From Sphyrna mokarran (taxonomy: Eukaryota): DNA of 64,000 nt. Below the pieces are notes generated by a model. It was not told the DNA's origin and ran no database searches. It saw nothing but the letters and a program-made list of their open reading frames with translations. Shown one piece after another: positions 21,864 to 63,650 of this stretch. The stretch covers positions 69,936,001 to 70,000,000 of the forward strand of contig JAGIQG010000009.1 in the NCBI GenBank assembly GCA_024679065.1, in the 5' to 3' direction. Positions within the stretch are counted from its first letter, which is position 1. Each line of letters opens with the position of its first letter. The position numbers and the translations under genes are program-made.

Positions 21864-21963
21864 NNNNNNNNNNNNNNNNNNNNNNNNNNNNNNNNNNNNN
21901 NNNNNNNNNNNNNNNNNNNNNNNNNNNNNNNNNNNNNNNNNNNNNNNNNNNNNNNNNNNNNNN
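21864..21963. other. 100-N scaffold gap at the palindrome centre
   Basis: Exactly 100 n, flanked by ...tatgataagt and acttatcata... Confidence 0.99.
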
Positions 21964-22000: not shown

Positions 22001-22115
22001 CTTTATCTTTTGAGGTAATCTGTACCAGCTGATAATCTTCCATCAGTTCTGGTTCAAGGTTGTGCTTGGACATGGCTCTCAGGATAACCACAGGTGCTTT
22101 ATCTTCATTTGTTAC
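22001..22115 (-). CDS. RGL1: exon 17 (115 nt), RA domain: [38 protein letters not shown]
   Basis: ctatttag|GTA and G|gtgaga; DKAP..KHNL..YxLVQ motif. Confidence 0.93.
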
Positions 22116-40100: not shown

Positions 40101-43100
40101 CACTTGAGACTGGATCACCTGTCGACGGCAGAATTAATTGCTCTGTAGTTTGCGGCATGATGTAATTGAGGGCATTTGAATCACAAATTCTGTTTGTAAT
40201 CTTGTTAGAAGGTCTGTTTCTGATTGCCCTCACGATGGTGGCAAGCCATTCTCTTGACAATTGCCAGATCATTGAAGAAGGCAGTTGAGTTAACTATATT
40301 GCTATGGATCTGAGTCACGCGTAGGGCAGACAAGGTAAGAATAACCAATTTTCTACCCTCAAGGACATTTGTGAATAAGATGGGTTTTTACAACAATCTG
40401 GTAGTTTCATGCTTATTGATTTGAATTTAAATCCCTAGTTTCTGTGGTAGGATTCAAATTCATTTATTATAATGCAGCAGGTGCCACAGGCAAAGAGTTG
40501 GAGAGAAAGTAAAACCACATCTTCTTTTACAGTTCTAGTTGTCATAAAGCAGGCAAGTTTAAAAGGTCCAGCCACATTGGAAAAGCCATGGAGAAGGTAA
40601 GTTTGTAAGACAAGTGGGTAGAACTGGGGAGCAGCAGGATGGGGTTGGGTTGTCAATGGTGGGGCTTAGAGTGAATTTTGTATAGTTATCCAGAAGTTAG
40701 TAGTAGTTTAATTCTGACCTGTTCTGGATTATGATTATAAGACAGTTTGCTATGTATATTGTACTTTTGAATGGCTTCCATTGCAGGGCAATTATGGTTT
40801 GAAATTTTTACCTAGGATTTCTGGGTGGGGCTGGTGCGGGGTGGGGTGGTGTGCAGTGAAATTCTCCAGCAGACAGTTATGAATCTGTGGTATTTCCTAC
40901 GCAGTAAAGCAGTTGGGGCTACCTTGTTGAATGTTCATCTTAAAGCAAGCATAGATAAATTTTTGAGCAGTAAAGGAATTAAGGATTATTGGAAGGTGGA
41001 GCTGAGCCCACAAAACATCTACCATGATTTTATTGAATGGCAGCTCAGGCTCAAATGATCTACTGCTGCTCCTTTTCCAATGTGCTTATGGGTCAGGGTG
41101 CCTGACAGATTAGTCCTAACAAAAATACTACACAGTCCTCTTCGAATACAGAAGACAAATGCTTTGACTACCTCCAAAATTGATTAGGAATTAAATAACA
41201 ACCCATGCTTGATTATTTTTTATCCTGTACACAATGAAGCACATGGGATAATTTGGCATTTCAATATTTATAATGTAACTGATCACTTGGTAAATTGAAG
41301 AAATTAAGCAGATAAATATGGATGATCATGAGCACAAACGTTAGAAGAGTTTGCTGAAATTTTGATTGAAAATGAAGCTTTTCAGAACATTCCTCAAGTT
41401 AGAGAGAAGGAGAGAGTAACAAGTCAAGGATGAGGTACAAAGTTGGACTTAAGGCTAGTCAAAAGGCAGGGTGTTGGATGTATCTCATCAAATGGAAAGA
41501 TTAAAGATTGCAAGGACACTGGGACTAAGTTGATGTGGGACACAAGATGCTGCAAAAGAGCAAGTGGTCTTGGTGATGGAGTACATGTAAGATATAGATT
41601 GAGATAAAACAGAAAGCAAAGTTTTTCCACTGTCCAGTTCAGTCTAAGCAAAGGAGGGAGCTTTTGGCAATAGAGAGAAACAATGGCTTCTTGATACTCA
41701 AGTGATGGTAAATGTGCCAGGATGTTTTATTGTATGTACAGATGACATTGGAGTGCCTTAATAGTTTTTAAAACAGCACAAGACAGACTGTACACTTGCT
41801 GCAATCTACAAATTATGAATTTTGGGATTATAACTTCTTTTTGACTACTATGTTGACTATTCAGCCCAATTATTCAACTGAAAATATGCAGGAAAATATA
41901 CAGGAAGAAGCAAAATCACGTTTAGGCCTCCTGCATGTCATTTATAGGCCAGTCAGCTTAATCAAGTGAAAAATAACTTTGGAAGCACTTCATGATAAAA
42001 TCTATATCTAATTTGGGGTGTACAGTCCCCCAGAGATGGACAAATGCTTTATAAGATCATCATTTTCTTCCAAACACATGTATCAGTGTTGATTGTTACA
42101 ATATTAGCATAGATTTACTATCTCCCATCCTATTGGACACTAATTCAAATCAAAGAAGACATGTTTGAAAGGGAGTGCCTGAAAGTGAGGAAACAAAAAT
42201 GCTCTTCCCGGAGCCAAGCACTAAAAACAGGCACAGTGGTGAAAAGGGTAAAAGGAGAAGAGTGCAGCTGCAATTCCCAGAAGTGCAACAACATGTGTGC
42301 TCGAGCTGAATCATGTTCTTTTAGAAAAGGGAAAATCAATTCAGATGAACTGAATTTTTGTTACATTGCCAAAATCTAGCAAGTCAATAGCCACATCAAC
42401 TTTGTACAACCAGAGCATGGCATTGCAAAATCATGTCAAACACATACAAAAACAGGCAATCCTGTCAAACTGCTCAATTTGACTGATTGCATTTTGGTCC
42501 TCAGATACCGAGAGTTAGGTATTGCAAGCCATATCCAAAACATGGTGAGTGTACATTCCTAGTTGGGCTTGTTTTTGCTGCTGTAGGATTCTAATATACT
42601 TTGATGTCTACGAGAACTTTCAAAAATATCCTGGCAAAATCATTGACAATCATCCAGTATTCTTGATAAGCACATCAGAGAAAAGGAGTGGTTATTCAAC
42701 TGGTCTTAGCTGTCAATGGGAGGAAGGTAAGGAAGCGATACCAAGAGTTTAGGTCAAATATGTTCCTCAAAAATGTGGACTCACAAATCCAGAGCCACTG
42801 GCTGTCAAGAGGCTTAGGAGAAGAAAGAAAAAGAAGCTTATGACAGATACCAAGGGCTCAGTGCTATGAAGAATCTCAGAGGAGTAAAAAAAAGGGTGTA
42901 GAGGTTACATTAAAAAGAAATTAGGAAAGTAAAGAGAGGGCATCAAGATATTGGCAAATAAAGAAACCCAAAGACTTTTTCAGAATACATTAAGAACTAG
43001 TGCAGATAAAGAGCAGGATTCACTGGGAACCACAAGGGTGTGGAATAGTAGGGGTGGATATTCCTATGGTTCTAATAATTGTGGCTGGGTTTGGGAACTT

Positions 43101-46100
43101 ACTGGTATTGACAAGAGATCCTCTAACTACTTGGACGTACACTTATCAAAATTACGGATCGAGAGATTAGACTGACGGCTACTAATCAGCCAGTATGAAC
43201 ACAATGGGACGAGTGGCCCCTTCATCACTGTAAATTTCTATGTGTTAATATTTCAGTAACTCAGTATTCCTGGAGTATGTGGCTCTCTTAAAACAAAGTA
43301 AAAGCACAATGTTTCCAGATGCTGTGATTGGTGTCTGTTTTGACACAAACGATATGAAATTAGATCATTACAGTTTGAAATATTCAACAAATAAAGCAAT
43401 CGGATTGCAAATATGCCCCAGTTCTCATGCAACAACTAATCCTTATTATAGAGGACAAACAAGAAAAACAGGTAATAATTTAACAAGTAAATACTTAGGG
43501 GAGCCAAACAAATCTGTAAGTCTTCCACTTTGGGTTGTAATTACATGCCCTCAGTGTACAAAGCAAAAACATCATTGGCATAAGTCTCACTTTATACTTC
43601 AAGTTCAAATTTCTAAGATATACTTAGGTTGTATTCTTGGCAGCATATCCACATTAAACGTTTATTTAAAAAGTTAGCATCCGACAGGCTTTGAATGCTT
43701 AAGCCAAGCCAGACCACCTAGTACACTCATTGCTTCATTGGTTGACAACATTCACATGCAGTCAATCAGCAGTTTAATTCATTGTAGATACTATTTATTA
43801 CTTATTTTGAAGCATTGAACAGCTCACTAAAATAGATCCATTGGGCCACATGCAACATCTTACCTTCATCAGCAGGTCTAAATTTGTCATACAGTTATTT
43901 TCATTGGAGGATATATCCAAAAGCTCATGAAACATTGAAGTACTGTGCCTAGTCAAGAGAATAAGACAAATTACTCATGAGGGAATAGAAGGAGATTAAC
44001 TAATGGCTGCTAAGGACTCCGACATTGACAAACAGGTAACATAGACAATGGAGGATGATGAGCATTTTGGAAATTTTAGAGAATTTAATGTTAATTCAGA
44101 CTTGCGATTGTTGAATTGGATTAGCTATCCTTTGGCAAATATTATTGGCAGCAAGAGAAACTGTCAAGAAAACCAAAAACAGGATTAAATTGTCTGCAGC
44201 ACTGAGATAAAAATTACAGGTGTATGCTCTCAAAGATTTATTACACTTCCTCAGGAGATAAAGGACTGTTTTTTCTATACTTCCAGTATCCTATATGAAA
44301 TCAAAAAAGAGAAAAATGCTGGAAAATCTCAGCAGGTCTGGCAGCATCTGTAAGGGGAGAAAAGAGCTGACGCTTTGAGCCCAGATGACTCTTTGAATGT
44401 TCAGCTCTTTTCAGATTCCAGCACCCACAGTAATTTGCTTTTATCCACCATCTTATATGGCTGGCACAGCATCATTTTGGGAGAATAGTGGCAGGTTATA
44501 TCTAAGAGCAGATCAGTTTGGGAGCATAGTAATTTAAAGTTCAAGCTGAACAGCTTTATTAAGAATCAGAATTCCTACAGTGCAGAAGGAGGCCATTCAG
44601 CCCATGCAACCTGCATCAATAACAATCTAATCTAGCCCTAACCGCATGGATTTACCCTGCTAGTCCCTCTGGACACCAAGGAGAAAAACCATGCAGCCAC
44701 AGAATGTGCAAACTCCACAGTCACTCAAGGCTAAATTGAACCCAGGTCCCTGGCGCTAGCCAAAGGAAGAACAATTCTAGCAATTAGCCAATTGTTAGGA
44801 GTGCACAGCAAGTACCTCTGGTCATCTTATTGATGCACGTAAAACTCACTATCCAGTACTGTATGTTTATCAGAAATATTTCATAGCTACCGTGGAAAAG
44901 GAACTTACTTTGATACAAACGCCCAAGTCTTTTTCAACTTGAATATTTGAGTTGACTGCATTGCAGACACAATTGCATGCAGAGATGAAAAATTCTTCAA
45001 GATCTTACATTTCTGTTGGAAAACAAAAGAGTTCTGTGTAAGTAACAGCAGTTCCCATTTGCTGATAAGACAGAACCTGAAGTATCAACAGAAGCTCAGC
45101 TGTGAAAATAACAGCAGCAAAAACAGATTATGGAAAAAACATTGTCACACTTCACGCTCGTTACTCCCTTATTTTTCCTCTACCACAATCTCTTCAGCTG
45201 TGGTCAGATGGTGTGTTTGAGAGGAAGAGGGGGAAGGAGGGGAGCGGGAAGGGGAAGGGTGGAGGGAAGAGGGGAACGGGGAAGGGGGTAAGGGAGGGAG
45301 GGGAAGAGGGAGAGAAGGGAAGAGGAGAGGGGAAGTCTCTGCCCATTTTGTTAGGTTGATGAATTGGTGACAAATATTGTAACTTCTAACAAAGAGCAAA
45401 AAAAGGCTAGTGAAGGCAGCACAAGATAATCTTCTAAAGAAAAGCAGATAAATCAGAAAATTGAGTACATTTTTATTGGCTACATTTTGACTAAAATAAA
45501 ACTGTTGATATCCAAGTTAGCTGATCTCAACTAGGATAGCAGCAGCAGTGCCCACTATACACTTGACTCTACAAAAGGAGTCATGATGTAGAGATGCTGG
45601 CGTTGGACTGGGGTAAACTCAGTAAGAGACTGGCAACACCAATTTTAAATCCAACCGATTTATTTGATAGTAAATCTGCTAGCTTTTGGCCTTTGTAGCC
45701 TTCGTCAGGTGAATGAGATGTTCTCATTTGCCTGACAAAGGCGACAAAAGGCCTAGATTAGATTGTTATTGATGCAGGTTGCATGGGCTGAATGGCCTCC
45801 TTCTGCACTGTAGGATTTACTTTCAAATAAATCGGTTGGATTTAAAATTGGTGTTGCCAGACTCTTACTGAGTCTACAAAAGGAAGCAGGAGAAATTAAA
45901 TCAGTCATAATTCCCACTCCCGAGGGCAGGAAACAGTTTCTGGGATTGTTGCCAGGTTCCAAAACCAGCCTGGTTGAGAGGTTGGGTAAGAGTTAGTAAA
46001 AATGTCATTGATGTGTGATTTTTATGGAAGCAGCCACTTGAAAAAGACATGGAGTCAGGGATCCCAGGCAGGCATTCAAACCTAGAGGGGCATCAGCCTT

Positions 46101-49100
46101 CCAGCTCAAGGAGGACAGCCAGCTGCTGCCAAGGAGAAGTAATCGAGGATGTTTCAAAATGAAAAAAAAATCTGATTTCATTTTAGATAAAGCAGCAAAG
46201 GCCACCAACAGGATGGGACTACCTCTACAGGGTGGCCTTTGGTTCTGCCTGTACCCAATTAGGCAGGGAGGACGTGTCAACCTATCTGGAGTTTTGATAC
46301 ATGCGACACTGCCACAGGGTGTCTACCAGGCTGCAGCCAATTGAACTGCACCTGTCATGTTATGGAACTGGAGACCAAATGGAAAATCTCATTCAACCTC
46401 CTGTCAATGATCCTAAAAAGCGCAACCAAGGTGGGCATCCTTGTTGAGCCTCAAACCTATCTTCCCCAAAATGAGCAGGAAGACAGAACACCAAACTGGC
46501 ACTGATAACTTTAGACCCAGTCTGCCTCTATTGCTGACCTAAAAGAGAACCTGCTCCCAATCTCTTTCAATCCCCCCATCCCCTGTCTCTGCATGAGATG
46601 AACAGCCAATTTGATAAGATGCTGAAGGGAAGTCACTTGGGCATGGGGTCATTCACCAGCAAGAATCGACGGAAAGGAAGAATAAAATATAAACATTAAT
46701 TACAGCCAGAAGTGGGAGGGATGCAACGGACAAACTGTAATACCCGACTTCATTGCAGAAATGCAGTTAATAACCTGAAATCAGTTTGCATTGTTCCTTC
46801 ACGTGATTTGTTAGTATTCAAATGCAAACATTAGCAGAGGCATGATCTGTTAGCTACATAACACCAACCTCTTCCTCTTCAGACATCCTGCAGCTTTATT
46901 AACTGTTTGATTTCCTTGAGAAAACATAAAGCCCAGGTTGAAAGCTGGGCAGAGGTCTTGACCCAGAGCTCAACCAACAGTGTCTTTAGATCTTTAAAAA
47001 CACAGGGCAGTCACATGGCTGCCACACATTTCATATAATTAAATGATGCCCGACTGTGATATGACTACGGGATCTTTAATGCACGGGAGCTGGCAAAACA
47101 GCTTCTGTAATAGGCACTGCAAATTACGAAGGGGCTGCTTATCCAGCTTACTCTCTTATTTGCGGCCAAAGGATACAATGTTTAGCACATACTGGGTTTT
47201 TGTTTACAAAAGCAAATTATACTGATTTCAGCTTTCAGACTCACTGTGGAAATTATGATTGCCATGATGCAACATTCTACAGAAGCAATCAACTTTTCTT
47301 CCTCAGAAACCTACCTCACTGCCTCACCCACTATCCATGAGGTTTTCTGTACTTGTTAACATTCAACCCAAATTGCTTGCATGCTGCTTTCCACATCCTT
47401 GTGGGATTTTGTTTTTTGCATAGAGATCAATAAACAGTGTCATACCTGAGCAATGTGAATCCACTTGTCAATTATTTTAGCCCTCTGCTGTGGTTTCAAC
47501 TGGAGATCCTTTAATATGGTACTGATGACACACTTAGTGACGAGATTGAATTGAGTGATGGTAGCCTGGACTGTAGGTGCTGGATGTTTGTTTTCCTTGT
47601 TATCTCTTCGGGACCAGATGTATCCCAGGCAATGATGGGGGACCACCTTTTTGAACAGGTACTGATCAAAAATAAAAATGAATAACTAAAGATGTTTTTA
47701 TTACCATGGACCTTTAGAATACTGAAGTGCAAACAAAACTTGTCCAGATAAAAGTCAACCAGCTTCACTGCTTTGTATATTTAAAACTAAAATACAAAGG
47801 TTAAACAGTGACAATGTATAATTCTCACAAATACAGGAGTGCATTAGTGGAGTGAAACATTCAATATCTGTTCAGCTCCTGCTAACATTGGATGGTGTAT
47901 ATATAATGAGTGGCTGATCAATACCACACAATTTGCACAACTACCTGAGACAAATTTCTACCCCATAAGTGAGTGACAGATTATTTTTGACCAGATTATC
48001 TACTTTACAAAAGCCTCTCATACACCAATTAAAATATTTGGTAACACTTAATGAGATCTTCAAATTAAAAGGTGAAAGTGAACCACAACAGCTACAACTA
48101 TATTACTCAGTCATATGGAGATGGGATTCAAGACATAGTCAGAAACAAGGGGCAAAGTTAGGATGGTTACCAAAATCTTAGTCAAAGATTTATGTTTTAA
48201 GAAAGGCCATAGCAGGAAGAGACAGAAAAGATTTGGGGAGGAAATGCAAGCATGGAATATAGGCAGAAAATATTAGAGTTGGACTTGTGCTAATAGGATA
48301 CAGTGTTTTTAAATCAGAGATGATAACTGGGAAGGCATGCACCTCTAGTGCCAGCTGAAGATGGACTATGCCTTCATTCTCCCTCATGATGAATGCTGGG
48401 AAATTTATGGCTTGTTCACGCACAACTGAATGAACTGCCAGTCTAGCAATGCAAATGATAAGACAAAAGGTCAAGAAAAATGGCGGAGAGGTAGAGTTAG
48501 GCATTAAAGTACCTGTAGAACTGACTCCCATGTCTGCTGATTATATTGCCAAAGAGGCAGCATGTAGTTGAAGTAGGTGAGTGGGTTCAGGTTACTAAAG
48601 CAGCATGTACTTTATTACTTGGATCCAGTAATGTTTAGAGAGGAAGATAGCTGATGTGGACTAAAGGAATATATTTATAGAATGTTTCAATGTTAAAAAG
48701 CTGCCCTCTTCCAATATTCTAAAAATTAAGATGTCCTGCATAGACTAAGCATTTCAATTAAACAAATTTCTAAAACATTTTATTTTGAAACAACCATAGG
48801 TTGCAATTTTAATGTAATTTGTCCAGATGGGATTGGGCAAAAGACTCATTTTACAGTCTATTTATACCCTCCATTAGTCTATGTTAAATTGGTCTCGTCA
48901 TAAATGATAACATTGAATACAGCAGTTAGGACTTGTACATGACATTGGTAAGGCCATACTTGGAATACTGTGTACAGTTCTGGTCACTCTATTATTATAG
49001 ATAGGATATTATTAAACTGGGAAAAGAATGACTAGGATGGTACTGGGACATTATGGTTTAATTTCAAGGAGAAGCTGGGACTTTGTTTACTTGGAACATG

Positions 49101-52100
49101 TGGGGCTTAGGATAATCTTAGCAGTTTATAAAATAGAAGGGCACAGATAAGACAGAGAGTCAATATCTCTTCCCAAAGTTGGGAAGTCTAAAACTAGAGG
49201 GCATTGGTTCATGGTGAGAAGGGAGAGATACAAATGGCTGCAGAGGGGCAATTTGCCTCCCTCTGCCCTCCACAGTTGGTGGGCACCTGGAAAAAGCTGT
49301 CAGAGGTAGTTACATGGATAAGAATGGTAGAGTGGGATATGGGCCAAACATGGGCAACTGGGACTAACTTAATGGTTAAAAACTGGGTGGCATGGACAAA
49401 TTGGGCTGAAGGGCCCGTTTCCATGCTCTAACTCTCTAGGATACTCAGGCAGACTGGTTGCACTTTGACTGCTATACACCATGAAAAGTTTGCCAAGCTT
49501 TTTCCATGCAAGCGAGACCTGTGTCAGTCTTTATCTGAAAACTAAAAAGGAAACTGCACTGGCCTGCTCATATTTGTTACTATTTTTATGCCAGCTGTGA
49601 ACATTGCAGTTTTAATCCTGCAATACTATTACACAATGGGCAGAAGTCTAACAGGAGATGTTAAAAATAAAGGGGTTTTCAGTCACCCCAAGGCTATTTG
49701 TTTCACATGACTTTCACCTTCAGAGAAACAAAGGCAGCTGTTGAAGTTTCATTGAAAGATATTCCAATCTTGTTACTGAAGTCACATGTCAAACATGCTC
49801 TGGTGTCTTAGAACACTGCATTGTGTGTGAATTCAGTTATAGTGACTGCTAATGATATGAAGAGAGATTGGATCATTGACTACCGTCCAAAACATCACAC
49901 GCAGAGTAATGGGCAACTGGTCCTGACAGAAAGACCCTAAGTTCACGTTTACTCACAGCATCCATGTACGTCAGCTGTTCTGCAACAACGTCTGACGGAA
50001 AGGAGAGGATGTCCTGTTTCTTGTCAACTCCCCCTATCTCTACATCCCCTTCCTCTCCCAGTTGGAAAGTAATGTTTCCATAGTTACTATCTGTATAATT
50101 GAAAGGAGACATTTATTTTGTGCCCAAAGTTCATGGCACTTAACTCAAGTTTCTAAAAACAATACACTTCTCAAATATGCATAATTAGAAAACTGGTCTA
50201 AAATATTCTTACAGCTGTATTTTTTAAAATCTAGATTCAGTGAAATTAATCTTGAACAATGTTATAATCAAAGTCTCTTAATGGAGAGCACTTGAGCAGC
50301 AAGAAAATATTTATTAATGTGTTCCCATTAAGCAGTCCTGATAGATGGGAAGCTAATCTGTGTCTGAGTAAATCTTCCACCGCACTTAGTATGTTCTTAT
50401 TTCATAGAGCAAGTCACAGAATGGAACAAAGATACCATTGATAGCAACAGCTACAAGAAATTGCCAATAGGCCACAATAAATGCTGCCAGGCAAAAATCA
50501 GATCATACTGCATCTTCCTCTTAAAGTTACATTATGTATATCTGTGCTTGTGTATTCTATAATCATAGCGCCTCGAATTGTTAGTGTAAGGAGAGGGCAG
50601 GAAAAGATTGGGATTAGAAAAGGAGAGGGAAACATTTCAGAGTCCTTTCCAGAAGCACTGAAAGTTCTGGAAAAGCCTTTCCAATACTTTGGCATACAAA
50701 AGGTCAAGACTGAAATGGGACCACAACAGAAAAAAGACCCTCTTCCAGTCAATGTCAGCATAACACTCAACTCTGATTCATTTTTAAACAAGCTTAGCTT
50801 AATTATAAATTCAGAATACAGAAACAATTTCAAAAAATTGCAAAAGGAAACCCAAATGAACTTCAAAACCATTGGGCATAACTTTGCATGAACCTATGGT
50901 CAGCGAATGTTCTGAATTAGTTTATTTAAGAATGCCAGTAATGTGAAAAGCTATACACAATACATAACATATAAATAAACTAATTCACAACACCACATCA
51001 TTTGGAAATGATTCTTCCAACCTGGCAGAATACTCAATTGGAGTATGTGTGGGTAAAATGGTGTTGCTGTAACAACATGTATTGCATGTTGGAGATTATA
51101 ATTTGTCAATAGTGTTTTTTTTAAGATCTGGTAATGTTTAAAATATCATTGTACCAATTTCATTAATTCCATTACAATCCAGAGTATAATTAATCCATTT
51201 TATCTTTCAGAGCGACTCAAAACCTTTATCTTTTGAGTTACCATTCAGTTATAGAGTAGTTTAACTGGAAATTATCAAAGTATGTTTATGAAGATATTCC
51301 AAAGTGAAACACAGGTCAACCATTTGGCCAAAGGTGACGGTGCAAGTTCGAACTCTCAAATGGATCCATCTGCTGCAATCTCATTTCTGAACATTTCTCT
51401 ACCCACCAAATTGAAGTAATCCATGCACCAATGGTTTTCTAACTTCAGTGTTTAAACGTTGCACAAAAGGCTGACTGGAGTATTTCCAACACAACAAATA
51501 AAATTGATTCCTCTGAAAGGAGGTTCGAAGTGAAACTGGCTCTGGTGCCGATGTTAAAAAAACAAACACTAGAATGCTCAGCAGGACTGGCAGTATGTGG
51601 AGAGACTGTTTCAGATCAATGACTTATCATCATTGGAATTAAGATTTTTAAGGGAGGAACAAAAGGAAAGGGTGGCGAGGAGAAAGAAACAAAAGATTTA
51701 TCTTTGCAATACAAAAATTAATATCTTACAGTCAAGCTCCCGTTCTTCTGATTGTTCCTTCTCAAACCGATCAAGAAGGTTCTGCATCCGTTGCTCAAGC
51801 TCCGATCCTGGCATGGCCTGCTTCAAGTAGGCAATTATCTTCCGAATGCATGTGTAACTTGGAAGATGGCAGAAATCTTCTGAGTACAGGTCCAGCCAGT
51901 TTTGTAGAACTGAGACTATAGTACTGGAAATAATTATACAAATGAAGAATTAGTAACTGTCCATCAATGAAAACTAAGTTAGTAATCTTCAACTTTAACT
52001 TTGTAGATCAAAACTGTTTTTGAATGTATTCTTTCGATATGGGTCAGACCAGCATTTCTTTGTACCTCCCTAGTTAGCTGAGACCAAGTGGTGGTAAGCC

Positions 52101-55100
52101 GCCTTCTTGAACTGCTGTTCAAGAAGTGGCATGTCTTTGAACAGAACTTTGAGGGTGGTGGTGTTCCCTAGGTATTTCTTCTTGGGGAAATTTTGCTGAT
52201 TCAACCTCCTGAGGCTCATCAAACAAAGCCAGACAAACCAAAAGGAGACAATTTTTCCAACAGCTTCTTAAAAAGAAAAAGATAGAAATGTTGAAGGGGA
52301 AGGATTTAACAAGCTGAGATACACAACAGACCATACTTAGTGGAACATGGAGCTCCAGAAGAATTTTAGAGATTCACAAGGATGAGAGAGATAGGAGGCC
52401 GTGGAGAAATCAGGATTATTCAAAAAATCAAATTCAGGCTTTGGTAAAGCAGGAAACATTTGGGTCAGCAAATAGAGATGGACGAATTCCAGATGAGATT
52501 AAATTTACAAAGGGGAGTTTAAAGTAGAAATTGTTTCTTTGTAAAGACCAAAGTGAAAAATTCTTCTTAAAGTAACATACAATTTATACTGAAGTCATCA
52601 GTTTTTCATTTGGAAACTCTTCTACAAATCTGCACTGTTTACTATATCTGACTGGAAGTTGGTTTAGCTCAGTTAGCTGGACAGCTGCTTCAATGCCAAC
52701 AGCATGGATTCAATTCCCATATTGGCTGAGATTATGCACAAAAGCCCCATCTTCTCAGTCTTGTCCCTTGACTTAGAATCCTCAGGTTAAATGTTTGAGA
52801 AGGAGAGCAGCCTATAGTCATTTTAGACTATGACAGTTTACCTTTTTTGCTCCATTAACTGAAACAGAAGAACATGCCTCTAAAAGTTGCACACATCTGT
52901 TTTCAGTAATTCTATATTGTGTGGATTCCACACATGCACAGACTCTACTGAGGCTAACCAATTTCATTCCTATTAAAATGGGGGTGAACGGGGGAGGTGG
53001 CAGTCGCCTGCTGTGTCACATGCAGTAGTAGTCTTATGCTGTTCGTTAATGAGATGACTCATTCTTAGAAATATTTTGCACTGCAGGGACAATTTTTACT
53101 TCATCTGTATTCAGCATGACAGCATTCAGGTCATAGATTAAATCCAAGGATAACTGTTCTTTCAAATCAATTCCAAAACTAGTGGCCTAAATTTTTAAGG
53201 ATATTGAATCAATTTAAAGTGAAGCACTGGAATTTTTGGAAATATCAGTAAATTCCGTCAGTGAAGTCAGCTGCATTACCTGAACTTTGTTAAGTGATAG
53301 TTTTTAAACAATTACATAGGAATTCCAGAGTTTAGAATCAAAACAGCTGAAAGTACAGCGGTCAATGGCAAGACAAAGGAAATCCAAGATGCACAAGAGG
53401 ATCAGAAATCTCAGTAATAGGTTTAAGAAAAATATCAAGATAGAGAGGGGAAAAAAGCAATGGAAATGTTACATATATTTCAGAAAGTTACCTTCACTAG
53501 AGGAAACAGTGGCTCGACGACTGAAATAAGACCACAGGAAGAAACTAGGATGTTTTATTGCACCAAGAATTTGTTTGTCACTAATTTCTTACTCTCATTT
53601 CCTTTCGTGAAAAGAAAATTAAGTACAGAGACATGTCCCATTCTCTCAACTCTAAAAAAAACTCAAGCTCTTAACGGACCATTCCCAATTCAACCCTCAA
53701 ACATAAGCTTCCAACTGAACATTTGACTTAGAGCTTCAGTGTATATAGTATTGTCCATGATATACAGAACTCAGATTCAAAGCTTAATTCTACATTATTG
53801 CTTATGGGCTGTTTAAAAGTTTTTGCTAATACCTTTGTTTTCTGTTACAGCATGAGTTTAGAGCTTAGGTAAAGAGCAACAGAAATCAGAATAATCTTAG
53901 GTTTAGGTCTCCAGTGAGTTAATTGATCTGATCCAGGGAATTAAAATGACACAAGCAATCTTGAAAGGAAAAAATAGGTACCTATGGTTTTTTTTATTAA
54001 TCTATGAATTATTCATAATTGCATGAGAGATGCAATCTGCTAATGAATGATTCCATTTGGAAGTGTTTCTTTCTTAACACAAAGAATCATCAGTTTGGAC
54101 CGTCAAGGCTTCCCTACTTGCAATTTGCCACAAAGCCCAAATCAAGTCATTTTAAGCATCTATACGCCATTGGCTGCTCACCATGAAAAAAAAACTGAAG
54201 CTTCACTATTTAAAGTTTTGATTAGCTGGTTTTGTGAATGGCCACTCTCCAGATGCATGACTGCATTAGATGGCAGTTTTTGAATCTTTCACAAGTGGTG
54301 TGGCCAGGGATGGGGGTTAGAAATAGTTGAGGTAAACAGAATTCTGGATATTTATGTTGATGCAATTTTATCATGCACCATTGAACATCTTCACGGTTGG
54401 ACTATTCTCCTTGGCGAGGCAGCGGCTAAGAGAAGTTCGAATAGTTATGTCCAAATCATGAGGGGGGCTGGAAAGATTAGATAAGAAACTGTTTCTGTTA
54501 ATCAAGGGATCAAGAATGAGAGGGCAAGAATTTAAAGTGATTTGCAAAAGAAGCAAAAGAAGGAAAAAATACCACTCAATGGGTGGTTTGGGTCTGGAAT
54601 ACACTGTCTGGAATTGTGATGGAGGCAGGTTCAAATAAGGCGTTCAATGATGACATTAATATAAACAATGTGCAGGGATATAAGGAAAAGGCAAGACAAT
54701 GGCCCTAAGTATAATGTTCATTTGGAGAGCCAGGTCAGTCACAATGGATTTCTGCTGCAATAACAATTTTTAGAGGCAATCCAACAGTTTAACATGGTAG
54801 ATATGGTCTGGAATGGTGTTTGCAGCACTCTTATGGGAGACCACCATGAGAAAGTTTCCATATAATTTTTTTTAAATATAGGAATGGCAACAGTTCACAA
54901 TCTTGTATTCCAAATGAAGTAGAATTTAGTCATATCAAATTAAACTTAATCTTTGATTAGTGCACTTGGTTCTGGTGAACTTAGATTCCCACCTTCCTCA
55001 CTGGTCACAAAGAAAAGTGATTTTAAACAAATATTTGCATCCAAAAGTGGCAATCATTTAAAAAACAGGAGACATTGGGATTCAATATTTCAACCTTTCA

Positions 55101-58100
55101 TCAGCTGGTTTGCTTTAATGCATCATCTTTTGTTCTGTACTAATGTATTTTTTATTTAGAAATATTGAGGGGTAAGACAAATACAGAGAGAGTCAGTAAT
55201 GTGATTGTTGTAGTCTGGAATGGTTTTCACTACAATAATATATGAAGCTAATCCTAAATGATTCTTACGGGTAGAACCAGCACCCCAGCAATTCCCTTTT
55301 ACACAGATTCTGACTCAAGCAGAGTTTAGTCAGAGATTGGATCAAACTTCTTGACTGAGTTCGTTTCTGAGGAACATGACTTTCTATTTTCCTTGCACTT
55401 TGGACTATCAAAGTTTTCATGGCTATGGTCATAAAGCAGGTATTTTTAAGCAAGTATTTACATTCAAAATTCAACCCATTCAACTACACACCCCTCACCC
55501 CAACCCTTAAGCTGAAGGTGCAGTATTTCAAGCCTTCATCACCTGGGTTTGTCAAATACCCTTCATGGCCTGGCAAATTCTTCACTTTTATAATCAAGCT
55601 GGGGGATGAATCCTAGTTGAATGAAGTGTACAAGAGGACAAGGAGTACCAGACTGGCCTAAAAATGTGATGCAAACGGAGTGAAATTACCACACAGGGCT
55701 ATTTGCTGCTGAACAACATAAACAGCAAGGTGATACACTATGTATCAGAGCCAAGCTCTGCAGTCTTGCCACATCTAATCGTGAATGGTGGTGGACAATT
55801 AAACAGGTGGAAGCAGATCCACAATTTTCCCCATTCTCGGCACATCTGTGCAAAGCTGAAGCAGGATTTGCAATAACGTTTGCCCAGAAGTGCCACGTGG
55901 ATGATCCATTTTGGCCTCTCCTGTGAACCAAGGATCATTGATGCTGATCTTCAGCAAATTTGATTCACTTCATCTAATAAACATCTGAAGTCATTGCATA
56001 CCACAAAGGTAAGGACCACCAACAACATTACATCAATAGTACTGAGGATTTGTGCTTGAGAATTTGCTGTGCCCCTACCTAAGCTGTTCCAATCCAGATA
56101 CAACACTGGAGTCTACCCAACAATGTGGAAATATGCCCAGGTAGGTTCGGCAGCCCAGCAAATCACGGAATAACCTGCGCACAAGTGTTGAGTTTGGATT
56201 CAGTCATTGGATCAAACTTACTTTTTGACCGAGTCGGTTCCTGAAGGACACAGCTTATTATCTTCCTCGCACGTTGGGATATCAAAGTTTTCAGAGCTGT
56301 GGTCATAAAGCAGTTAATTTTAAGCAAGTATTTGCATTCAAAATTAAACCCATTCCCCACCCCCCCTACTCTCCTGTTTAAGATGCAGTACTTCAAAAAC
56401 CTTAATCAGCTGGTTTTGTTGAACAGAGCAACCCTTCATGGCCAGGCAAATTCCTCACTTTTATAAATCAAGCTGCAGAACCAACACTAGTTACAAGTGT
56501 ACAAGAGGACAATCCAAGGCTGACCTAAAAATGCGGCGTTCAACCTGATGAAACTACAACACGGCTATTTGCTCCTAACCACATAAACAACAAGGTGATA
56601 GACTGTGGATCAGAGCCAAGCTCTGCAGTCTTGCCACATCTAATTATGAATGGTGGTGGACAATTAAACAACCCACTGGAGGAGGCAAGTCCATATTTAT
56701 TCCCAACTCCCAGCACATCTGTGCAGAAGACAAAGCTGAAAAAGCATCTGTTTCAATGCCAAGATCCCATGGGATGTGGGAGACAGCCACATCCCATGTA
56801 TGGATCAAAAAATAGTCAATGACTCGCTACTTCTGCAGGTATTTTGCTCATGTCAACCATGCCCACCACTTGAGGAAAACACCAGATAAATCCTGGCCTA
56901 TTCTGGAGGCAACCTCAGCAATGGCACCAGTAGTACTGACTGTGTGTTTGCTGAAACATCCCAGTGATTGGCAGGCAGTTCTGGACACCAGACAACACTA
57001 TTTATTGGATCAGGTCCATGGCAGCAGGCGACTACCAGCAACATGCCATCATTTCTGCTGGGTACACTTGCAGTCACTGGAGAGTTTTCCCCCTGATTTC
57101 CCATTGACTCCAGTATTGCTTGGATTTCTTGATGCTGACGGCAGTCACTCTGACCTTGCCTCTTGATTTCAAAACTAGTAGAAGGGCTTTGCTTTCACCC
57201 ACAAAACCTCCCCCTCCCTCTCCCAAAACACAGGCATACAAAAAGTTAACTGCCTCTAGTAATAATAGAAACATTAGACAAAAAAAATTATTTGTCACAG
57301 GTATAGCTTACATAAACACTACAAATAAGTTATTGTTAAACTCCCCTAGTCACCATAATCCGGCACCTGTTAAAGTCAACGTACTTCCTAACTAGTCCAT
57401 CTTTCAGAATGTGGGAGGAAACCCACACAGACACAGGGGGAATGTGCAAAGTCCAGTGACACAAGCTGCAAATCGAACTGGGTTCTTGGCATTGAAACAG
57501 ACGTGCTAACCACTGTATTACCACACCAGGCTGTCAATCAATTCCTCTCACATGATTGCTATAGTATTTGCTACACTATTACATGCCTTTATGAGCAAGT
57601 TCCTACATTAATCTACAGGAATTGCTCGCTCTCCATCCATTCACATTTACGTTGTCATGTTCTGAATGAATTGCTGTCACACATAAGATTAAACTTACTT
57701 TATGACTACTGTAATGTTTCCTGGAGAAACATGATTTTCATTTTCCTCGCTATTTGGAGTGTCACAGTTTCTGCAGGTGCAATTGATCACAAAGAAAAGT
57801 GATTTTACACAAATGCTTACATCCACAAGTCATTTAAAAAAGAGGAAACTGGGATTCAATGTTTCAACCTTTGATCACCTGGTTTACTTAATGCATCATC
57901 TTTTGTTCTATATCAATGTATTTTTTATTGAGACATACTGAGGAATAAGACAAATACAGAGAGAGTCAGTAATGTGATTCTTGTAGTCTGGAATGGTTTT
58001 CACTGCAATGTTATATGAAGCTCTTCATAAATGATTTTTACAGGTAGAACCAGCACCCCAGCAATTCCCTTTTACACAGATTCTGACTCAAGCAGAGTTT

Positions 58101-61083
58101 AGTCAGAGATTGGATCAAACTTACTGTTTGACTGAGTTAGTTTCTGAAGAACATGACTTTCTATCTTCCTCACATTTTGGGCTGTCAAAGTTTTCATAGT
58201 CATAAAGCATGTCATTTTAGGCAAATATTTGCAATCAAAATTAAATCCATTAAACCGCCATCCCTTCTTAAGCTGAAGGAGCAGTATTTCAAGCCTTCAT
58301 CATCTGGGGTTGTTGAATACCCTTCATGGCCTGGCAAATTCCTTACTATTATAATCAAGCTGTGAGGTCAACCTTATTTGAATGAAATGTACAAGAGGTC
58401 AAGGAGTGCCACACTGGCCTAAAAATGTGACACAAGTCTGGTGAAACTACAGCACAGGGCTATTTGTGGCTGAACAGCATAAACAGCAAGATGATAACTG
58501 TGGATCAGAGCCCAGCTCTACAGTCTTGCCACATTTAATCGTGAATGGCAGTGGACAATTAAACAGGCGGAGGGGGGTCCACAATTTTCCCCATTCTCGG
58601 CACATCTGTGCAAAGCTGAAACAGCATTTGCAATAACCTTTGCCCAGAAGTGCCAAGTGGATGATCCATTTTGAGTGAAGTTGGTAGTTAAGGCGGCAAA
58701 TATGTTAGCATTCATTTCAAGAGGACTAGAATACAAAAGCAGGGATGTATTGCAAAGGCTGTATAAAGGTTCTGGTTGCACCACATTTAGAATATTGAAA
58801 GCAATTGTCGGTCCTACATCCAAGGAAGGATATACTGGCTTTGAGGACAGAGTCTGGAGGAAGTTCATGAGGATTATTTTGTGATTGAAAAGTTTGATGA
58901 ATAAGAAACATTTAGAATTCTGGGTCTGTACTCAAATAGAGCTTTCAGCCCATAACAATCCCACCCTAACCCTGTAACCTCACGTATTTATCCTGCTAAT
59001 TCCCCCCACACCCCCCCCTCTCCCCCCAACACTAAAGGCCAATCTATCTAGCTTGCACATGTTTTGGATTGTGGGAGAAAACTGGAGCACTTGGCAGAAA
59101 CCTACACTGACACAGTGACAACGTGCAAACTCCGCACAGAAGCGACTGAATCCAGGAATTGAACCCAGGCCCTTGGCGCTGTGAGGCAGCAGTGCTAACC
59201 ACCATGCCATCCAAAATAACGATGCCCAATATAATTGTTACATTTTAGATTGCAGCTGGAGTTGGAAGGTGTATAATGAGACAAAGTCCAGAGTCAGAGT
59301 TTATCAAATCATCATTAGGGTGCACAGTGAAGGTTTCATTTGTATTTACAATTAAGGTTTTGGGTGAATTTTCAATCTTTGTCAGGATTTGGTGTTTGGT
59401 GAAAAGCAACATTGTGTTTTACTTATTTTGGAAGCCCCTAACCCAGAATGGAGGGCTGGAAGCTCTGCCAGAGTCCTTCATTAAAAAGTTTGCGAAGTCT
59501 GAAGTCAGGATCTCAGAGGGTAGACTTGCTGCTCCAACCTGCTGCTTAGTACTTACTGCAATTTGCAGCCAGTTAACATAATCAGTGATCAAGAAGCTGC
59601 TCACTCAGTCACAACAACCTCCTGTGGTGTGGTGATCTGAATCTGCTGGTTAGTCAACTAGATGAGTAAGCCACCAAAAATGTGAGCCCAGGCCTAATTG
59701 CCTTGCCTTGAAGCTTCCTTTGACAAAAGGAACAAGTTAATCAGCAGACTGAATCATAACTAGACTCAGGGTTACACACAAGAGAGACACAAGAGAACAA
59801 TTTGGAACTTTGGTGTTTCTCCATTTAATCAACAAGGAAGCAGTTTATCTGTTCAAGTACCCACAAGACATGTCACCTTCAGCAATGTTTTTGTGCAGTT
59901 GTTCCAAATCATGCCCCACCAATGTTTAGATGTGGGCAGAAGGAAAGGGAGGGTGAAATTTATGGTATTCAGAACTTCATTTTGAATGGACTTGTCTTAA
60001 ATTACTCTAGAAATAATGGAACAAGGTATATCCCTGCAGAACTGCTTATTTGTCCATTCTATCAATGAAAGTCCATTAATTGAGTTTGTAGTTGGGATAC
60101 TACAGTGATCTGTAGCATTGTTACTGATGTAGGTTCCACACATACCTAAAACTGAAGCTTTTGTATAAGACCTGTTTCTTGTCATGAGCTTTATTTGAAT
60201 TGTTAGATTGATGAAAATGATGATCTTTGAACCTTATAATTGTGAAAATACTTGTTGAAGAATCAATCTTTTGCAATAATTTTGGTCTGATACAGTCATA
60301 TCCTGGAATAGTTTAAATTAGAGGGTCATTAGTTGGAGCAACATCAAGGGCCGAAGGGCCTGTACTGCACTGTAATGTTCTATGTTCTATTATAAGGATG
60401 AGGGGGGAATCTCATTGAAACTTATAGAATTCAGAAAGGCCTGGATAGAGTGGGTGAGAAGATGTTTCCATTAGTAGGAGACCGGAATCACAGGGCACAA
60501 ACTTAGGGCTGACCCTTAAGAACCAAGATGAAGGGGAATTTCTTCTGCTAGAGGGTGGTGAATCTATGAAATTCATTACCACAGAAGACCAGGTGTATTT
60601 AAGGCAGAGAATGATGGGTTTGAATTGGTAAGGAGATTAAAGGCGAATGTGGTCGAGAAACATATCAGCCATGACTGAAATGTGGGGCAGATTCAATGGA
60701 CTGAATATCTAATTTTGTTCCCATATTTCATGGTCAGTATGCTAATCCCATGACCAGTGACTGTTGGTATTCCTGGAAGATGAGCTTCAGATTAACAACA
60801 TGGAAATAATCTGACCAAAAAAATCCTTTTCTGCCATTGCCATTAAACAACAGATGCCACTTATTTGTTCTCACCCGTCCATCAAGAGTTCCAGCACACG
60901 ATCAGCAGTAGTAAAAGCTCTATATGTTGCGAGGAATATGCTGATATAGGTGAAATCGTTGTTGTCAAAAGCTGTTAATACATTTTCGATAAGCTTTCCT
61001 AAGGTCCCAGCCTTAATTATACGGACTCTGCGTGTTTCAGACCGACTGACGGTGTGACCTGGAGGCACCTCGTCTCCTTCCAC
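22001..61083 (-). CDS. RGL1: RalGDS-like gene (RGL1-like), exons ~3-17; first exons lie beyond 64000, terminal exon missing at the gap
   Basis: 15 exon positions with phase-compatible splice sites translate to REM ([23 protein letters not shown]), RasGEF ([37 protein letters not shown]) and RA ([14 protein letters not shown]) motifs. RGL1-type strings [13 protein letters not shown] and TSPKPRK are present. Exact orthology (RGL1 versus a diverged paralogue) is untested. Confidence 0.88.
25029..25523 (-). CDS. RGL1: exon 16 (495 nt): Ser/Pro-rich repeat linker plus RA domain start ([19 protein letters not shown])
   Basis: ttctgcag|TCA and TTG|gtaagt; open for 165 codons, phase 0 to 0. Confidence 0.87.
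27037..27235 (-). CDS. RGL1: exon 15 (199 nt): [39 protein letters not shown]...PQKKLTE
   Basis: tcgtgcag|C and GAG|gtattt; LFLG, TPTK and SGSSxES motifs. Confidence 0.87.
32370..32468 (-). CDS. RGL1: exon 14 (99 nt): [32 protein letters not shown]
   Basis: cctgcag|C and AG|gtattt; phase 2 to 2; SCE and TSPKPRK motifs. Confidence 0.85.
34700..34821 (-). CDS. RGL1: exon 13 (122 nt): [40 protein letters not shown]
   Basis: ttttag|GAA and AG|gtaaga. Confidence 0.95.
35842..37041 (+). mobile_element. mirror copy of the Penelope-like element
   Basis: Reverse complement of 6786-7985. Confidence 0.85.
37337..37369 (-). CDS. RGL1: exon 12 (33 nt): [11 protein letters not shown]
   Basis: catatag| and |gttagt; NFEKRR motif. 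Confidence 0.93.
38264..38350 (-). CDS. RGL1: exon 11 (87 nt): [29 protein letters not shown]
   Basis: ttttatag| acceptor; donor is gcaagt; [13 protein letters not shown] RasGEF signature. Confidence 0.92.
39743..39838 (-). CDS. RGL1: exon 10 (96 nt): [32 protein letters not shown]
   Basis: EGTSKFA motif; cttcaaag| acceptor, |gtgtgt donor. Confidence 0.85.
43864..43948 (-). CDS. RGL1: exon 9 (85 nt): [28 protein letters not shown]
   Basis: cttgactag|G and AAG|gtaaga; phase 2 to 0. Confidence 0.88.
44560..44758 (-). mobile_element. HE1-like SINE, truncated
   Basis: tgcaaactccacag..aattgaacccaggtccctggcgct core plus CR1-like tail ggccattcagccca. Confidence 0.78.
44909..45012 (-). CDS. RGL1: exon 8 (104 nt): [34 protein letters not shown]
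   Basis: ttccaacag|AAA and AA|gtaagt; NFSSL...LKKTW motif. Confidence 0.95.
45219..45335 (+). repeat. polypurine G/A tract
   Basis: About 117 nt, almost all G/A, with many GGG runs. Confidence 0.9.
45580..45872. mobile_element. short palindromic Penelope-terminus element with 12-bp TSD tctacaaaagga
   Basis: Start gtcatgatgtagagatgctggcgttggactggggtaaa matches the end of the 6786-7985 element; arms are inverted; TSD at 45568-45579 and 45873-45884. Confidence 0.82.
47446..47661 (-). CDS. RGL1: exon 7 (216 nt): [20 protein letters not shown]...[14 protein letters not shown]
   Basis: tgatcag|TAC and CAG|gtatga; conserved RalGDS-family GEF segment. Confidence 0.95.
48900..49440 (+). mobile_element. 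CR1-type LINE 3' fragment
   Basis: [18 protein letters not shown] and a CR1-like tail gggctgaagggcccgtttccatgct. Confidence 0.8.
49957..50090 (-). CDS. RGL1: exon 6 (134 nt), ends [19 protein letters not shown]
   Basis: tatacag|AT and GCT|gtgagt; RasGEF AEQLT motif. Confidence 0.92.
51730..51923 (-). CDS. RGL1: exon 5 (194 nt): [64 protein letters not shown]
   Basis: tttccag|T and T|gtaaga; REM WLD..EDF and MPGS motifs. Confidence 0.92.
54370..54770 (+). mobile_element. CR1-type LINE 3' fragment
   Basis: Degenerate similarity to the other CR1 tails; boundaries approximate. Confidence 0.6.
55348..55422 (-). CDS. RGL1: exon 4 copy A (75 nt): [24 protein letters not shown](N)
   Basis: gaccatag|C acceptor, weaker AA|gtttga donor, open frame, phase 2 to 2. 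Confidence 0.55.
56222..56296 (-). CDS. RGL1: exon 4 copy B (75 nt): [24 protein letters not shown](N)
   Basis: gaccacag|C acceptor, AA|gtaagt donor, phase 2 to 2; joins exon 3 to exon 5 in frame; resembles the RGL1 SPxCEED segment. Confidence 0.8.
57285..57530 (-). mobile_element. HE1-like SINE
   Basis: gaggaaacccacacagacacaggggg..tgcaaa..aatcgaac..gtgctaaccactg. Confidence 0.75.
58125..58199 (-). pseudogene. exon 4 copy C, pseudo-exon: [24 protein letters not shown]; acceptor AG deleted
   Basis: Open frame and gtaagt donor. Upstream reads gctttatgac-tatgaa where copies A/B read gctttatgacca(t/c)agc, a 6-nt loss removing the AG. Confidence 0.7.
58945..59210 (-). mobile_element. HE1-like SINE
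   Basis: ggaattgaacccaggcccttggcgctgtgaggcagcagtgctaaccaccatgcca. Confidence 0.85.
60380..60730 (+). mobile_element. CR1-type LINE 3' end
   Basis: aggatgaggggg..ctcattgaaacttatagaat, gagggtggtgaatctatg; same tail family as 31240-31560. Confidence 0.75.
60875..61083 (-). CDS. RGL1: exon 3 (209 nt), REM domain start: [70 protein letters not shown]
   Basis: cccctag|GTG acceptor, GG|gtgaga donor, phase 0 to 2. Confidence 0.93.
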
Positions 61084-62659: not shown

Positions 62660-63500
62660 ATCAACTTAACGCAAGATAAGTCCATTCAGTAGTCTGACAG
62701 CAACAGGAAAGAAGATGTTCTTGAGTCGGTTGGTATGTGACCTCAGACTTTTGTATCTTTTTCCCGAAGGTAGGTGGTGGAAGAGAGAATATCCAAAGTG
62801 CATGAGGTCCTTAATTATGCTTGCTGCTTTGCCTAGGCAGCAGGAAGTGGAGACAGAGTAAAGGGGTGGGAGGCCTGGTTTGCGTGATGGATTGGACGAC
62901 ATTCACAACCGTTTGAAGATCCTTGCTGTCATGGGCAGAGCAGGAGCCATACCAAACTGTCCCGAAAGAATGCTTTCCATGATGCTTCTGTAAAAGTTGG
63001 AAATTTTCTTAGTCTTGAGAAAGTAGAGGTGTTGGCGGGCTTTCTTAATTACAGTGTCAGCACTGGGGGGACCAGGACAAGTTGATGGTGATCTGGATAC
63101 CTAAAAACATGAAGCTGTCAACCTTTCTACTTTGTCCCTGTTGATGTAGACAGGTCCCTGAAGGAGATGAATTCTCCTTTGTTTTGTTGACATTGAGGTA
63201 GAGATTATTGTTGCTGCATCAGTTCAGATTCTCTCTCTCCTGTACTTTGTCTTGTCATTGTTTGAGATCTGACTCACTACAGTGGTGTCGTCAGCAAACT
63301 TGAAAATCAAATTGAAGGGGAAATTAGTCACCGTTATAAGCGTATAACGAATATAGTAGGGGGCTGAGAGAAAGCCTGTGGGGCACCAGTGTTGTGGATG
63401 ATCGTTTAGGTGGTGCTGTTACCTATTCTTACTGACTGTGGTCTGAGAGTTAGGAAGTTCAGAATCTATTCGCAGAGGGAGGTACCAAGGCCTAGGCCAT
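62660..63500 (-). mobile_element. Rex1/Babar-type LINE 3' fragment
   Basis: FKFADDTTVV near 63270-63310; IIKD..H.GYSLFHHLPSGKRYKSLRSHTNRLKNIFFPVAVRLLN C-terminus. Confidence 0.8.
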
Positions 63501-63524
63501 GGAATTCAGAAATAAATATACTCC

Positions 63525-63650
63525 TCATACACGTAGACTGTGCAGCTAAATCCCCCTCCAATTCGATTTTCAAGTTTGCTGAAGACATCACCGTAGTGGG
63601 TCGGATTTCAAACAGTGACGAGAGAGCGTATAGGAATGAGTGTTGGAGAC
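63525..63650 (+). mobile_element. second Rex1-type RT fragment, opposite orientation
   Basis: SNSIFKFAEDITVVGRISNSDERAYRNE. Confidence 0.75.

Follow-up and report, generated by a model that had tools for sequence, protein, structure and literature searches.

The RGL1-like gene and its exon-4 slot

The window, meaning the whole stretch of DNA that was analysed, comprises 64,000 nt of Sphyrna mokarran JAGIQG010000009.1 (forward-strand 69,936,001-70,000,000), and its minus strand carries an RGL1-like gene. With exons numbered according to the scheme of the preliminary description of this locus, exons 3 and 5-17 join into 729 codons with 0 stops (Table 1). These 14 exons, running from 61083 to 22001, are matched in order by Mustelus RGL1. 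All of their acceptors are AG, and their donors are GT but for one, which belongs to a GC-AG intron at window position 38263, 3' of exon 11. Leaving aside the exon-4 copies described below, the exons of the gene amount to 2188 nt with 0 frameshifts and canonical ends. Exons 1-2 were not found within the 64-kb window, and the 3' end of the gene is lost to an N gap.

Both domain matches and grouping with RGL1 orthologs bear out the identity of the gene as RGL1. Pfam RasGEF_N matches exon 3 (E 2.8e-11) and Pfam RasGEF is found on exons 7 and 8, which gives the order of REM followed by CDC25 that is typical of the RalGDS family. The RA domain of this family is represented by exons 16-17, which align to residues 907-1006 of Mustelus RGL1, where Pfam places RA at 949-1034; the exon-16 ORF by itself has no Pfam match. 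The names listed for homologues are RGL1 or uncharacterized, with one exception, and the exon 3 protein had no match when used as a query against 55 longer candidate proteins. Exon 16, with 165 codons of which 77 are alignable to Mustelus, contains an in-frame 15-nt tandem repeat of 8.9 copies (25252-25384). Additionally, small in-frame gains relative to Mustelus are seen in exon 10, which opens with 2 additional codons (39838), and in exon 14, which has a few (32370-32468).

The end of exon 3 and the start of exon 5 are both phase 2, and the slot between them can therefore take zero, one or several phase 2-2 exons. The exon-4 copies lie in this slot, within the REM region, as had been proposed.

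Table 1. Coordinates of the gene's exons, the exon-4 copies and the duplicated blocks in the window
Feature	Position	Strand	Remarks
Exon 3	60875..61083	-	REM first half, 209 nt, phase 0 to 2, AG/GT
Copy C	58125..58199	-	Mustelus units 3/5/7 type; donor GTAAGT intact, ancestral acceptor gone
Copy D	57699..57776	-	Mustelus units 4/6/8 and Cetorhinus unit 2 type; open frame, GTAAGT donor
Copy B	56222..56296	-	Mustelus units 3/5/7 type; AG and GTAAGT intact
Copy A	55348..55422	-	Mustelus units 3/5/7 type; acceptor AG intact
Copy E	54950..55000	-	51 nt, in frame; AG present, donor reads TTAAGT
Remnant F	54087..54116	-	Reads stop-GSLDGPN-stop-stop; decayed, with stops
Exon 5	51730..51923	-	REM second half, 194 nt, phase 2 to 1
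Exons 6-17	22001..50090	-	CDC25/RasGEF domain, linker, RA domain start
Block with C and the intron as far as D	57784..58673	-	85.6% identity over 916 nt to 55002-55913
Block with B	56190..56750	-	Identity of 74-77% with both the C block and the A block
Partner block with A and the intron as far as E	55002..55913	-	From self-comparison

Six exon-4 copies and their splice sites

The preliminary description reported a tandem triplication of exon 4, with three 75-nt copies (C, B and A). The three homologous 75-nt stretches, their open frames and their peptides are as it gave them; however, not all three are intact exons, and triplication is an understatement, as three more copies (D, E and F) had been overlooked. 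A protein profile of homologous units detects five copies in the window and a DNA profile adds a weak sixth, remnant F (54161-54091, E 0.0016), giving six copies in the transcription order C, D, B, A, E, F. The proposed tandem exon duplication and frame symmetry hold up well. In self-comparison, blocks of 556-916 nt with 74-86% identity (E 6e-93 or better) unite homologous exons with their flanking intron, on one strand and within one intron, and the copies are phase 2-2. Homology of the block containing B stops ~30 nt past the B donor; the D-type partner of B is thus missing.

Only copy B (1/6) keeps both the ancestral acceptor and the ancestral donor, a count that rises to 3/6 when fallback AGs are included. 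The slot is therefore not a cassette array with intact splice sites on every copy, and lost splice signals, indicative of decay, are found in C, D, A, E and F. Copy C has no AG ahead of 58199, where the sequence reads ...tttatga followed by CTATG, and carries a 6-nt deletion relative to A and B. Copy D has AC at the ancestral 78-nt acceptor position. In copy A the donor reads GAA followed by GTTTGA, a 4-nt deletion relative to C and B, which have ACA or AAA followed by GTAAGT. With the U1 motif as pairing partner, the A donor reaches -1.7 kcal/mol, whereas B, C and D each reach -5.6 and the 13 constitutive GT donors span -2.8 to -10.5. Copy E is a chimera: its upstream intron is D-type, and its coding part is the 3' portion of an exon of Mustelus unit 10 type.

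Internal AGs provide two of the damaged copies with fallback acceptors. An AG within copy C would yield an in-frame 57-nt exon (C57, 58181-58125), and an AG 6 nt further into copy D an in-frame 72-nt exon (D72, 57770-57699). Each is preceded by an AG-free zone (82 nt for C57, 45 nt for D72), and the donor strength of both equals that of B. With these fallback acceptors and full GTAAGT donors, C and D may still be spliced. The pyrimidine share of the C57 acceptor is 0.50, under all 14 constitutive acceptors, whose range is 0.55-0.85; the acceptor of copy B, at 0.55, is pyrimidine-poor as well.

Positions 1-43826 of the window form a perfect inverted repeat with arms of 21,913 nt (100%) and a 100-N gap at its centre (21864-21963). 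This 21.9-kb palindrome, which mirrors exons 10-17 and truncates the end of the gene, is almost surely a scaffolding artefact. As an origin of the exon-4 copies it is ruled out, in agreement with the preliminary description: the copies lie beyond 43826, outside the mirrored region, and are only 74-86% alike. Elsewhere in the window, 35840-37040 holds an element with 257-nt terminal inverted repeats of 91% identity (35884-37040), which looks like a DNA transposon derivative and has shorter relatives at 45579-45877. A decayed stretch at 62700-63640 is, by eye, LINE reverse-transcriptase-like and includes a 95-nt inverted pair.

Exon-4 arrays in RGL1 models of other sharks

The first of 242 exon-3 matches is isoform X14 of Scyliorhinus torazame RGL1, whose 1210 residues include an insert of 407 in the exon-4 slot. 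The insert between the exon 3 and exon 5 matches was measured in 119 further proteins, the best of 1203 matches. Among these listed homologues, it has <=30 residues in 111/119 (exactly 27 in 103) and 146-432 residues in 7/119, all of them shark models; a sheep model (1/119) has 53 residues, formed by an unrelated extension. Some database models lack exon 4 (1-residue insert in P0021 and P0025; 1/119 listed).

The long inserts are built of 25-26-residue units. In automatic gene models (RefSeq/UniRef), there are 6 units in Heterodontus francisci (P0157), 8 in Cetorhinus maximus (P0156), 12 in Mustelus asterias (P0155) and 16-17 in Scyliorhinus torazame (P0001, P0151-P0154; union 18). A single unit is found in Heptranchias, Pristiophorus, Pristis, Rhinoraja, Leucoraja, Callorhinchus, coelacanth, sturgeon and tetrapods. 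Presence or absence of the array thus divides Galeomorphii from Squalomorphii and the remaining vertebrates, given the groups to which we take all species except Mustelus to belong. The array had been called lineage-specific; according to the database models, it is common to galeomorph sharks. No canonical carpet-shark RGL1 was seen among the models examined, and four diverged RGL1-like models of Stegostoma tigrinum (P0270-P0273) have ~7-10 units in inserts of 186-253 residues. Two of these, when compared with Mustelus, were ~47-50% identical to it. The literature searched, mostly non-subscription and in main texts, yielded no description of an RGL1 exon array in sharks; visible as it already is in automatic models, the array is apparently undescribed in print.

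Unit order is conserved between mackerel and ground sharks. In the unit tree, copies A, B and C of the window group with Mustelus units 3/5/7 (support 0.955) and copy D groups with Cetorhinus unit 2 and Mustelus units 4/6/8, while in Scyliorhinus, Mustelus and Cetorhinus the first units cluster together, as do the last units (0.946 and 0.829); with units of only 25 residues, the deeper forks of this tree are weak. Searched with protein and DNA profiles, the window contains no match to either the first- or the last-unit type. The block formed by C and D, or A and E, matches a repeated pair of units in Mustelus and catshark, which points to duplication of a two-exon block. The window gene is thus like the galeomorph models in gene, slot, unit types and repeated two-exon block, identity to Mustelus units being 80-83% for A and C and 71% for D. 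However, those models have 6-17 units, whereas the window gene has six remnants, one of them intact.

The five catshark models have 13 units in common and differ only in five YENSD-type (A/B/C-type) units. This suggests that units can act as cassettes, the one part of the earlier proposal on their use that has found some backing. Since the units are included together in the models of relatives and those of the A/B/C type vary in catshark, the sequences look like a cumulative cassette array rather than a set of exclusive exons.

The inserts encoded by the arrays are polar, acidic and Ser/Thr-Pro-rich, with ~1-1.5 cysteines per unit. Their hydrophobic share is 0.13-0.17, compared with 0.30 in the CDC25 region, and N+G+S+P make up 0.38-0.44. 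Composition of this kind predicts a disordered spacer that is looped out. Pfam REM coverage extends over residues 1-102 in the single-unit Heptranchias protein and just over 1-61 in that of Mustelus; the Mustelus array had no usable match in the protein atlas. Like the window gene, single-unit vertebrate RGL1 and Rlf/RGL2 (4JGW) have the REM-CDC25-RA layout, but vertebrate RGL1 of this kind has one 26-residue unit and no array. In Rlf 4JGW, a stretch between the REM halves can be aligned with the exon-4 segment, although it is shorter and gaps are needed. In SOS1, CDC25 alone contacts the substrate and REM is allosteric, according to PMC6767298. By analogy, the RGL1 linker would act on regulation rather than on catalysis.

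Three further models, P0008, P0033 and P0055, are RalGDS-like proteins in which the entire REM region is repeated 2-4 times, and may be merged tandem paralogs. P0034 and P0038 are diverged RGL1-like proteins with one exon-4 unit each; P0034 is long-branched and pairs with Heterodontus (support 95). Were P0034 and P0038 galeomorph, they would represent a second collapse to a single unit in a fast-evolving copy.

Probable erosion of the array in a fast-evolving gene

The window gene has diverged rapidly. A quick tree of 13 RGL1 rows, which leaves out five long or partial rows, places it as sister to Mustelus RGL1 (support 97), and with all 18 rows the galeomorph placement is unresolved. Its branch length is 0.42, compared with 0.0075 for Mustelus, a ~50-fold difference. 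Divergence is greatest in the REM and linker exons and least in parts of CDC25 (exon 13, 37/40). While Mustelus and Cetorhinus agree at 68/69 positions in exon 3 and 61/64 in exon 5, the window gene agrees with Mustelus at only 50/69 and 38/64. The Stegostoma models P0270-P0273 are likewise fast-evolving, RGL1-like and galeomorph, with an exon-4 array, and fast RGL1 duplicates seem to be recurrent in galeomorph sharks. Unlike the window gene, however, the Stegostoma models keep their ~7-10 units in frame and lie on a separate, longer branch.

Of 14 runs with matches to the window, none is recorded as RNA; contigs from 4/14 (X1, X2, X5 and X3) match it at 85% likeness and cover introns. Run X1 accounts for 63% of sampled words, and some of its contigs are 88-94% alike on non-repeat intron, which fits at least two related loci and hence a paralog. 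The window gene is likely an RGL1 paralog, the alternative being an accelerated ortholog. A contig of run X5 (piece 29) crosses the A donor with 9/210 differences and 4 extra letters, as expected for an unbroken donor, although the place of the 4-letter gap is not given. This piece is closer to A than C is, which is consistent with recent loss of the donor. None of the indels listed from the contigs (12/135) lies at a lesion site, and the joints listed (15/759) include no exon-exon joint. Contig depth in run X3 ranges from several hundred to ~9,000 on non-repeat sequence of 51650-58940 and on exon 3, and is 6-9 on 59258-60208. Depth is not copy number, and this may reflect strong amplification of an array-bearing RGL1-like locus in a relative.

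Substitutions among the copies may retain a record of past coding. Copies A and C differ at 11/75 positions (0.147), about as much as their upstream flanks (52/365, 0.142). Nevertheless, of the 9 changes across 23 comparable codons, 6 are silent (simulated neutral P ~0.013 for <=3 amino-acid changes). Assigned to branches, amino-acid-changing and silent changes number 3/2 for A, 9/3 for B and 0/3 for C, with one ambiguous. The silent excess between A and C (pS 0.47, compared with an intron divergence of 0.11-0.14) comes from six changes and may be noise. Copies A and C were probably under purifying selection formerly and remained coding through much of the time since they separated; changes so skewed towards silent sites indicate that their splice sites were probably lost recently. 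Copy B, the most altered of them in protein terms, has evolved fast, like the exons that the gene uses, yet has retained its sites, length and frame; its 9:3 ratio is close to neutral, and the substitution pattern by itself shows no selection. At ~19% divergence, the neutral chance of B keeping its AG, GT, frame and length is roughly 0.43 x 0.22 x 0.46, or ~0.04. For A, C and D, the chance that each would lose a core site within the neutral time set by their coding changes is roughly 0.003-0.06. The preliminary description had named inert duplication as the outcome that would undo it, with only B ever spliced and A and C diverging at intronic rates. This is partly what the locus presents: B alone has the ancestral sites and A and C differ at an intronic rate, but the silent-skewed changes speak against copies that were inert from the start.

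Taken together, the copies are best explained as the eroded remains of a galeomorph exon-4 array in an otherwise intact, fast-evolving and likely paralogous RGL1 gene, from which mainly B would be spliced (probability about 0.6). With both ancestral splice sites kept in B alone, the array is probably on its way back to a single exon rather than working as an either-or switch. The phase 2-2 exon 4 would have allowed copies to be added without a frameshift, and unequal crossing-over would have multiplied exons both singly and as two-exon blocks. The units of canonical shark RGL1 would be spliced serially, stretching the variable REM linker to an insert of ~150-430 residues, and the A/B/C-type units, with their purine-rich acceptors, would be skippable cassettes. 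In the window gene, deletions would have taken the unit types of both ends and joined others together, after which point lesions would have silenced C, D, A and E recently. The predicted product has, like that of other vertebrates, a single 25-residue linker, here encoded by B alone, with minor in-frame forms possible via the 57-nt and 72-nt fallback acceptors or by skipping.

RGL1 couples Ras to Ral, and nearly all vertebrate homologues examined have one short exon-4 linker. An exon-built insert of up to ~430 residues in the middle of REM is unexpected in this setting, the more so with its unit order kept between mackerel and ground sharks, and the window gene adds the reverse stage, a diverging copy in which the array sheds splice sites along with units. 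A bolder and distinctly tentative version is that the shutdown was selected, the fast duplicate reverting a conserved, length-tunable array (up to 18 exons) to one unit through an independent splice-site hit in each of the other copies. If so, these genes would offer a natural gain-and-reversal series for REM linker length in a Ral GEF.

It is rather unlikely, though worth weighing, that the slot is still a live, reduced cassette in which C57, D72, B and, weakly, A are variably included through the fallback sites, for 0-4 units per transcript. All combinations of these four (16/16) are stop-free and in frame, C57 and D72 use the first AGs after AG-free zones with donors as strong as that of B, the C branch has 0 amino-acid-changing substitutions, and the catshark models vary in A/B/C unit type. 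However, the fallback AGs are former coding bases rather than retained acceptors, and an in-frame fallback is expected by chance at 1 in 3 per site. Moreover, C57 has a pyrimidine share of only 0.50 and the donor of A is weaker than 13/13 constitutive GT donors.

That no copy is used, with exon 3 joined straight to exon 5 and all six copies inert, is improbable. The 3-5 join is in frame, database models without exon 4 exist and the changes in B are near neutral. Even so, the sites, length and frame of B have survived ~19% divergence against a rough chance of 0.04; furthermore, the insert is short in 111/119 homologues listed, of which only one lacks the unit. Even less credence is given to the view that the lesions stem from misassembly or from a private allele, with the species itself having an intact C-D-B-A array that is spliced serially. 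The scaffold does contain a 21.9-kb palindrome, perfect and centred on an N gap, and in the X5 contig, from another organism, the A donor is seemingly unbroken. Yet the 2188 nt of other exons are free of frameshifts and have canonical ends, and the lesions, spread over five copies, consist of base changes and of deletions of 6 and 4 nt, with no homopolymer slips among them.

The preliminary description favoured a cassette or mutually exclusive array, and a three-way switch would have mattered, homologous exclusive triplets being nearly unknown in vertebrates. Joint inclusion of the copies carries no frameshift or decay penalty, as all 16 patterns remain open. Steric exclusion needs a very short intron, of ~50 nt, and the introns between the copies measure 348, 1402, 799 and 347 nt. 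A scan for upstream docking and selector sites put 0/4 copies above shuffles. An AT-rich stretch at 60243-60272, whose pairing with the B and A acceptor regions is weak, was rejected as a docking site, upstream pairing being not above shuffles. Downstream, B (0/30) and C (1/30) beat crude shuffles and A and D do not, and the best sites of the four copies are all different. Exclusive sets usually arise from equal-length homologous tandem exons, as PMC8373072 states; however, the same paper reports that tandem duplicated exons mostly become constitutive and that homologous exclusive triplets are nearly absent in human, SLC12A1 being the only three-way set, in which joint inclusion leads to a frameshift. 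With 6-17 units at once in the models of relatives, a proxy for transcripts, no frameshift penalty, no tight spacing, introns all of the GT-AG type and no common complementary site found in these scans, it is most improbable that exactly one of C, B and A enters each transcript.

The RGL1 array shares internal-exon tandem duplication with SCN-alpha 5a/5b, SLC12A1 4a/b/c and Dscam1. In the SCN genes, tandem exon copies were later lost too, according to 10.1101/2025.08.16.670673. Unlike the exons of these exclusive systems, RGL1 units add to one another in relatives, and no mechanism of exclusion came to light in the window. A closer likeness is offered by the exons of CD45/PTPRC, which are frame-symmetric and serial, as the RGL1 units are, and vary the length of a polar spacer. 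The variable exons of CD45/PTPRC are extracellular and glycosylated, whereas the RGL1 insert lies within the REM of a cytoplasmic GEF and is mostly broken in the window.
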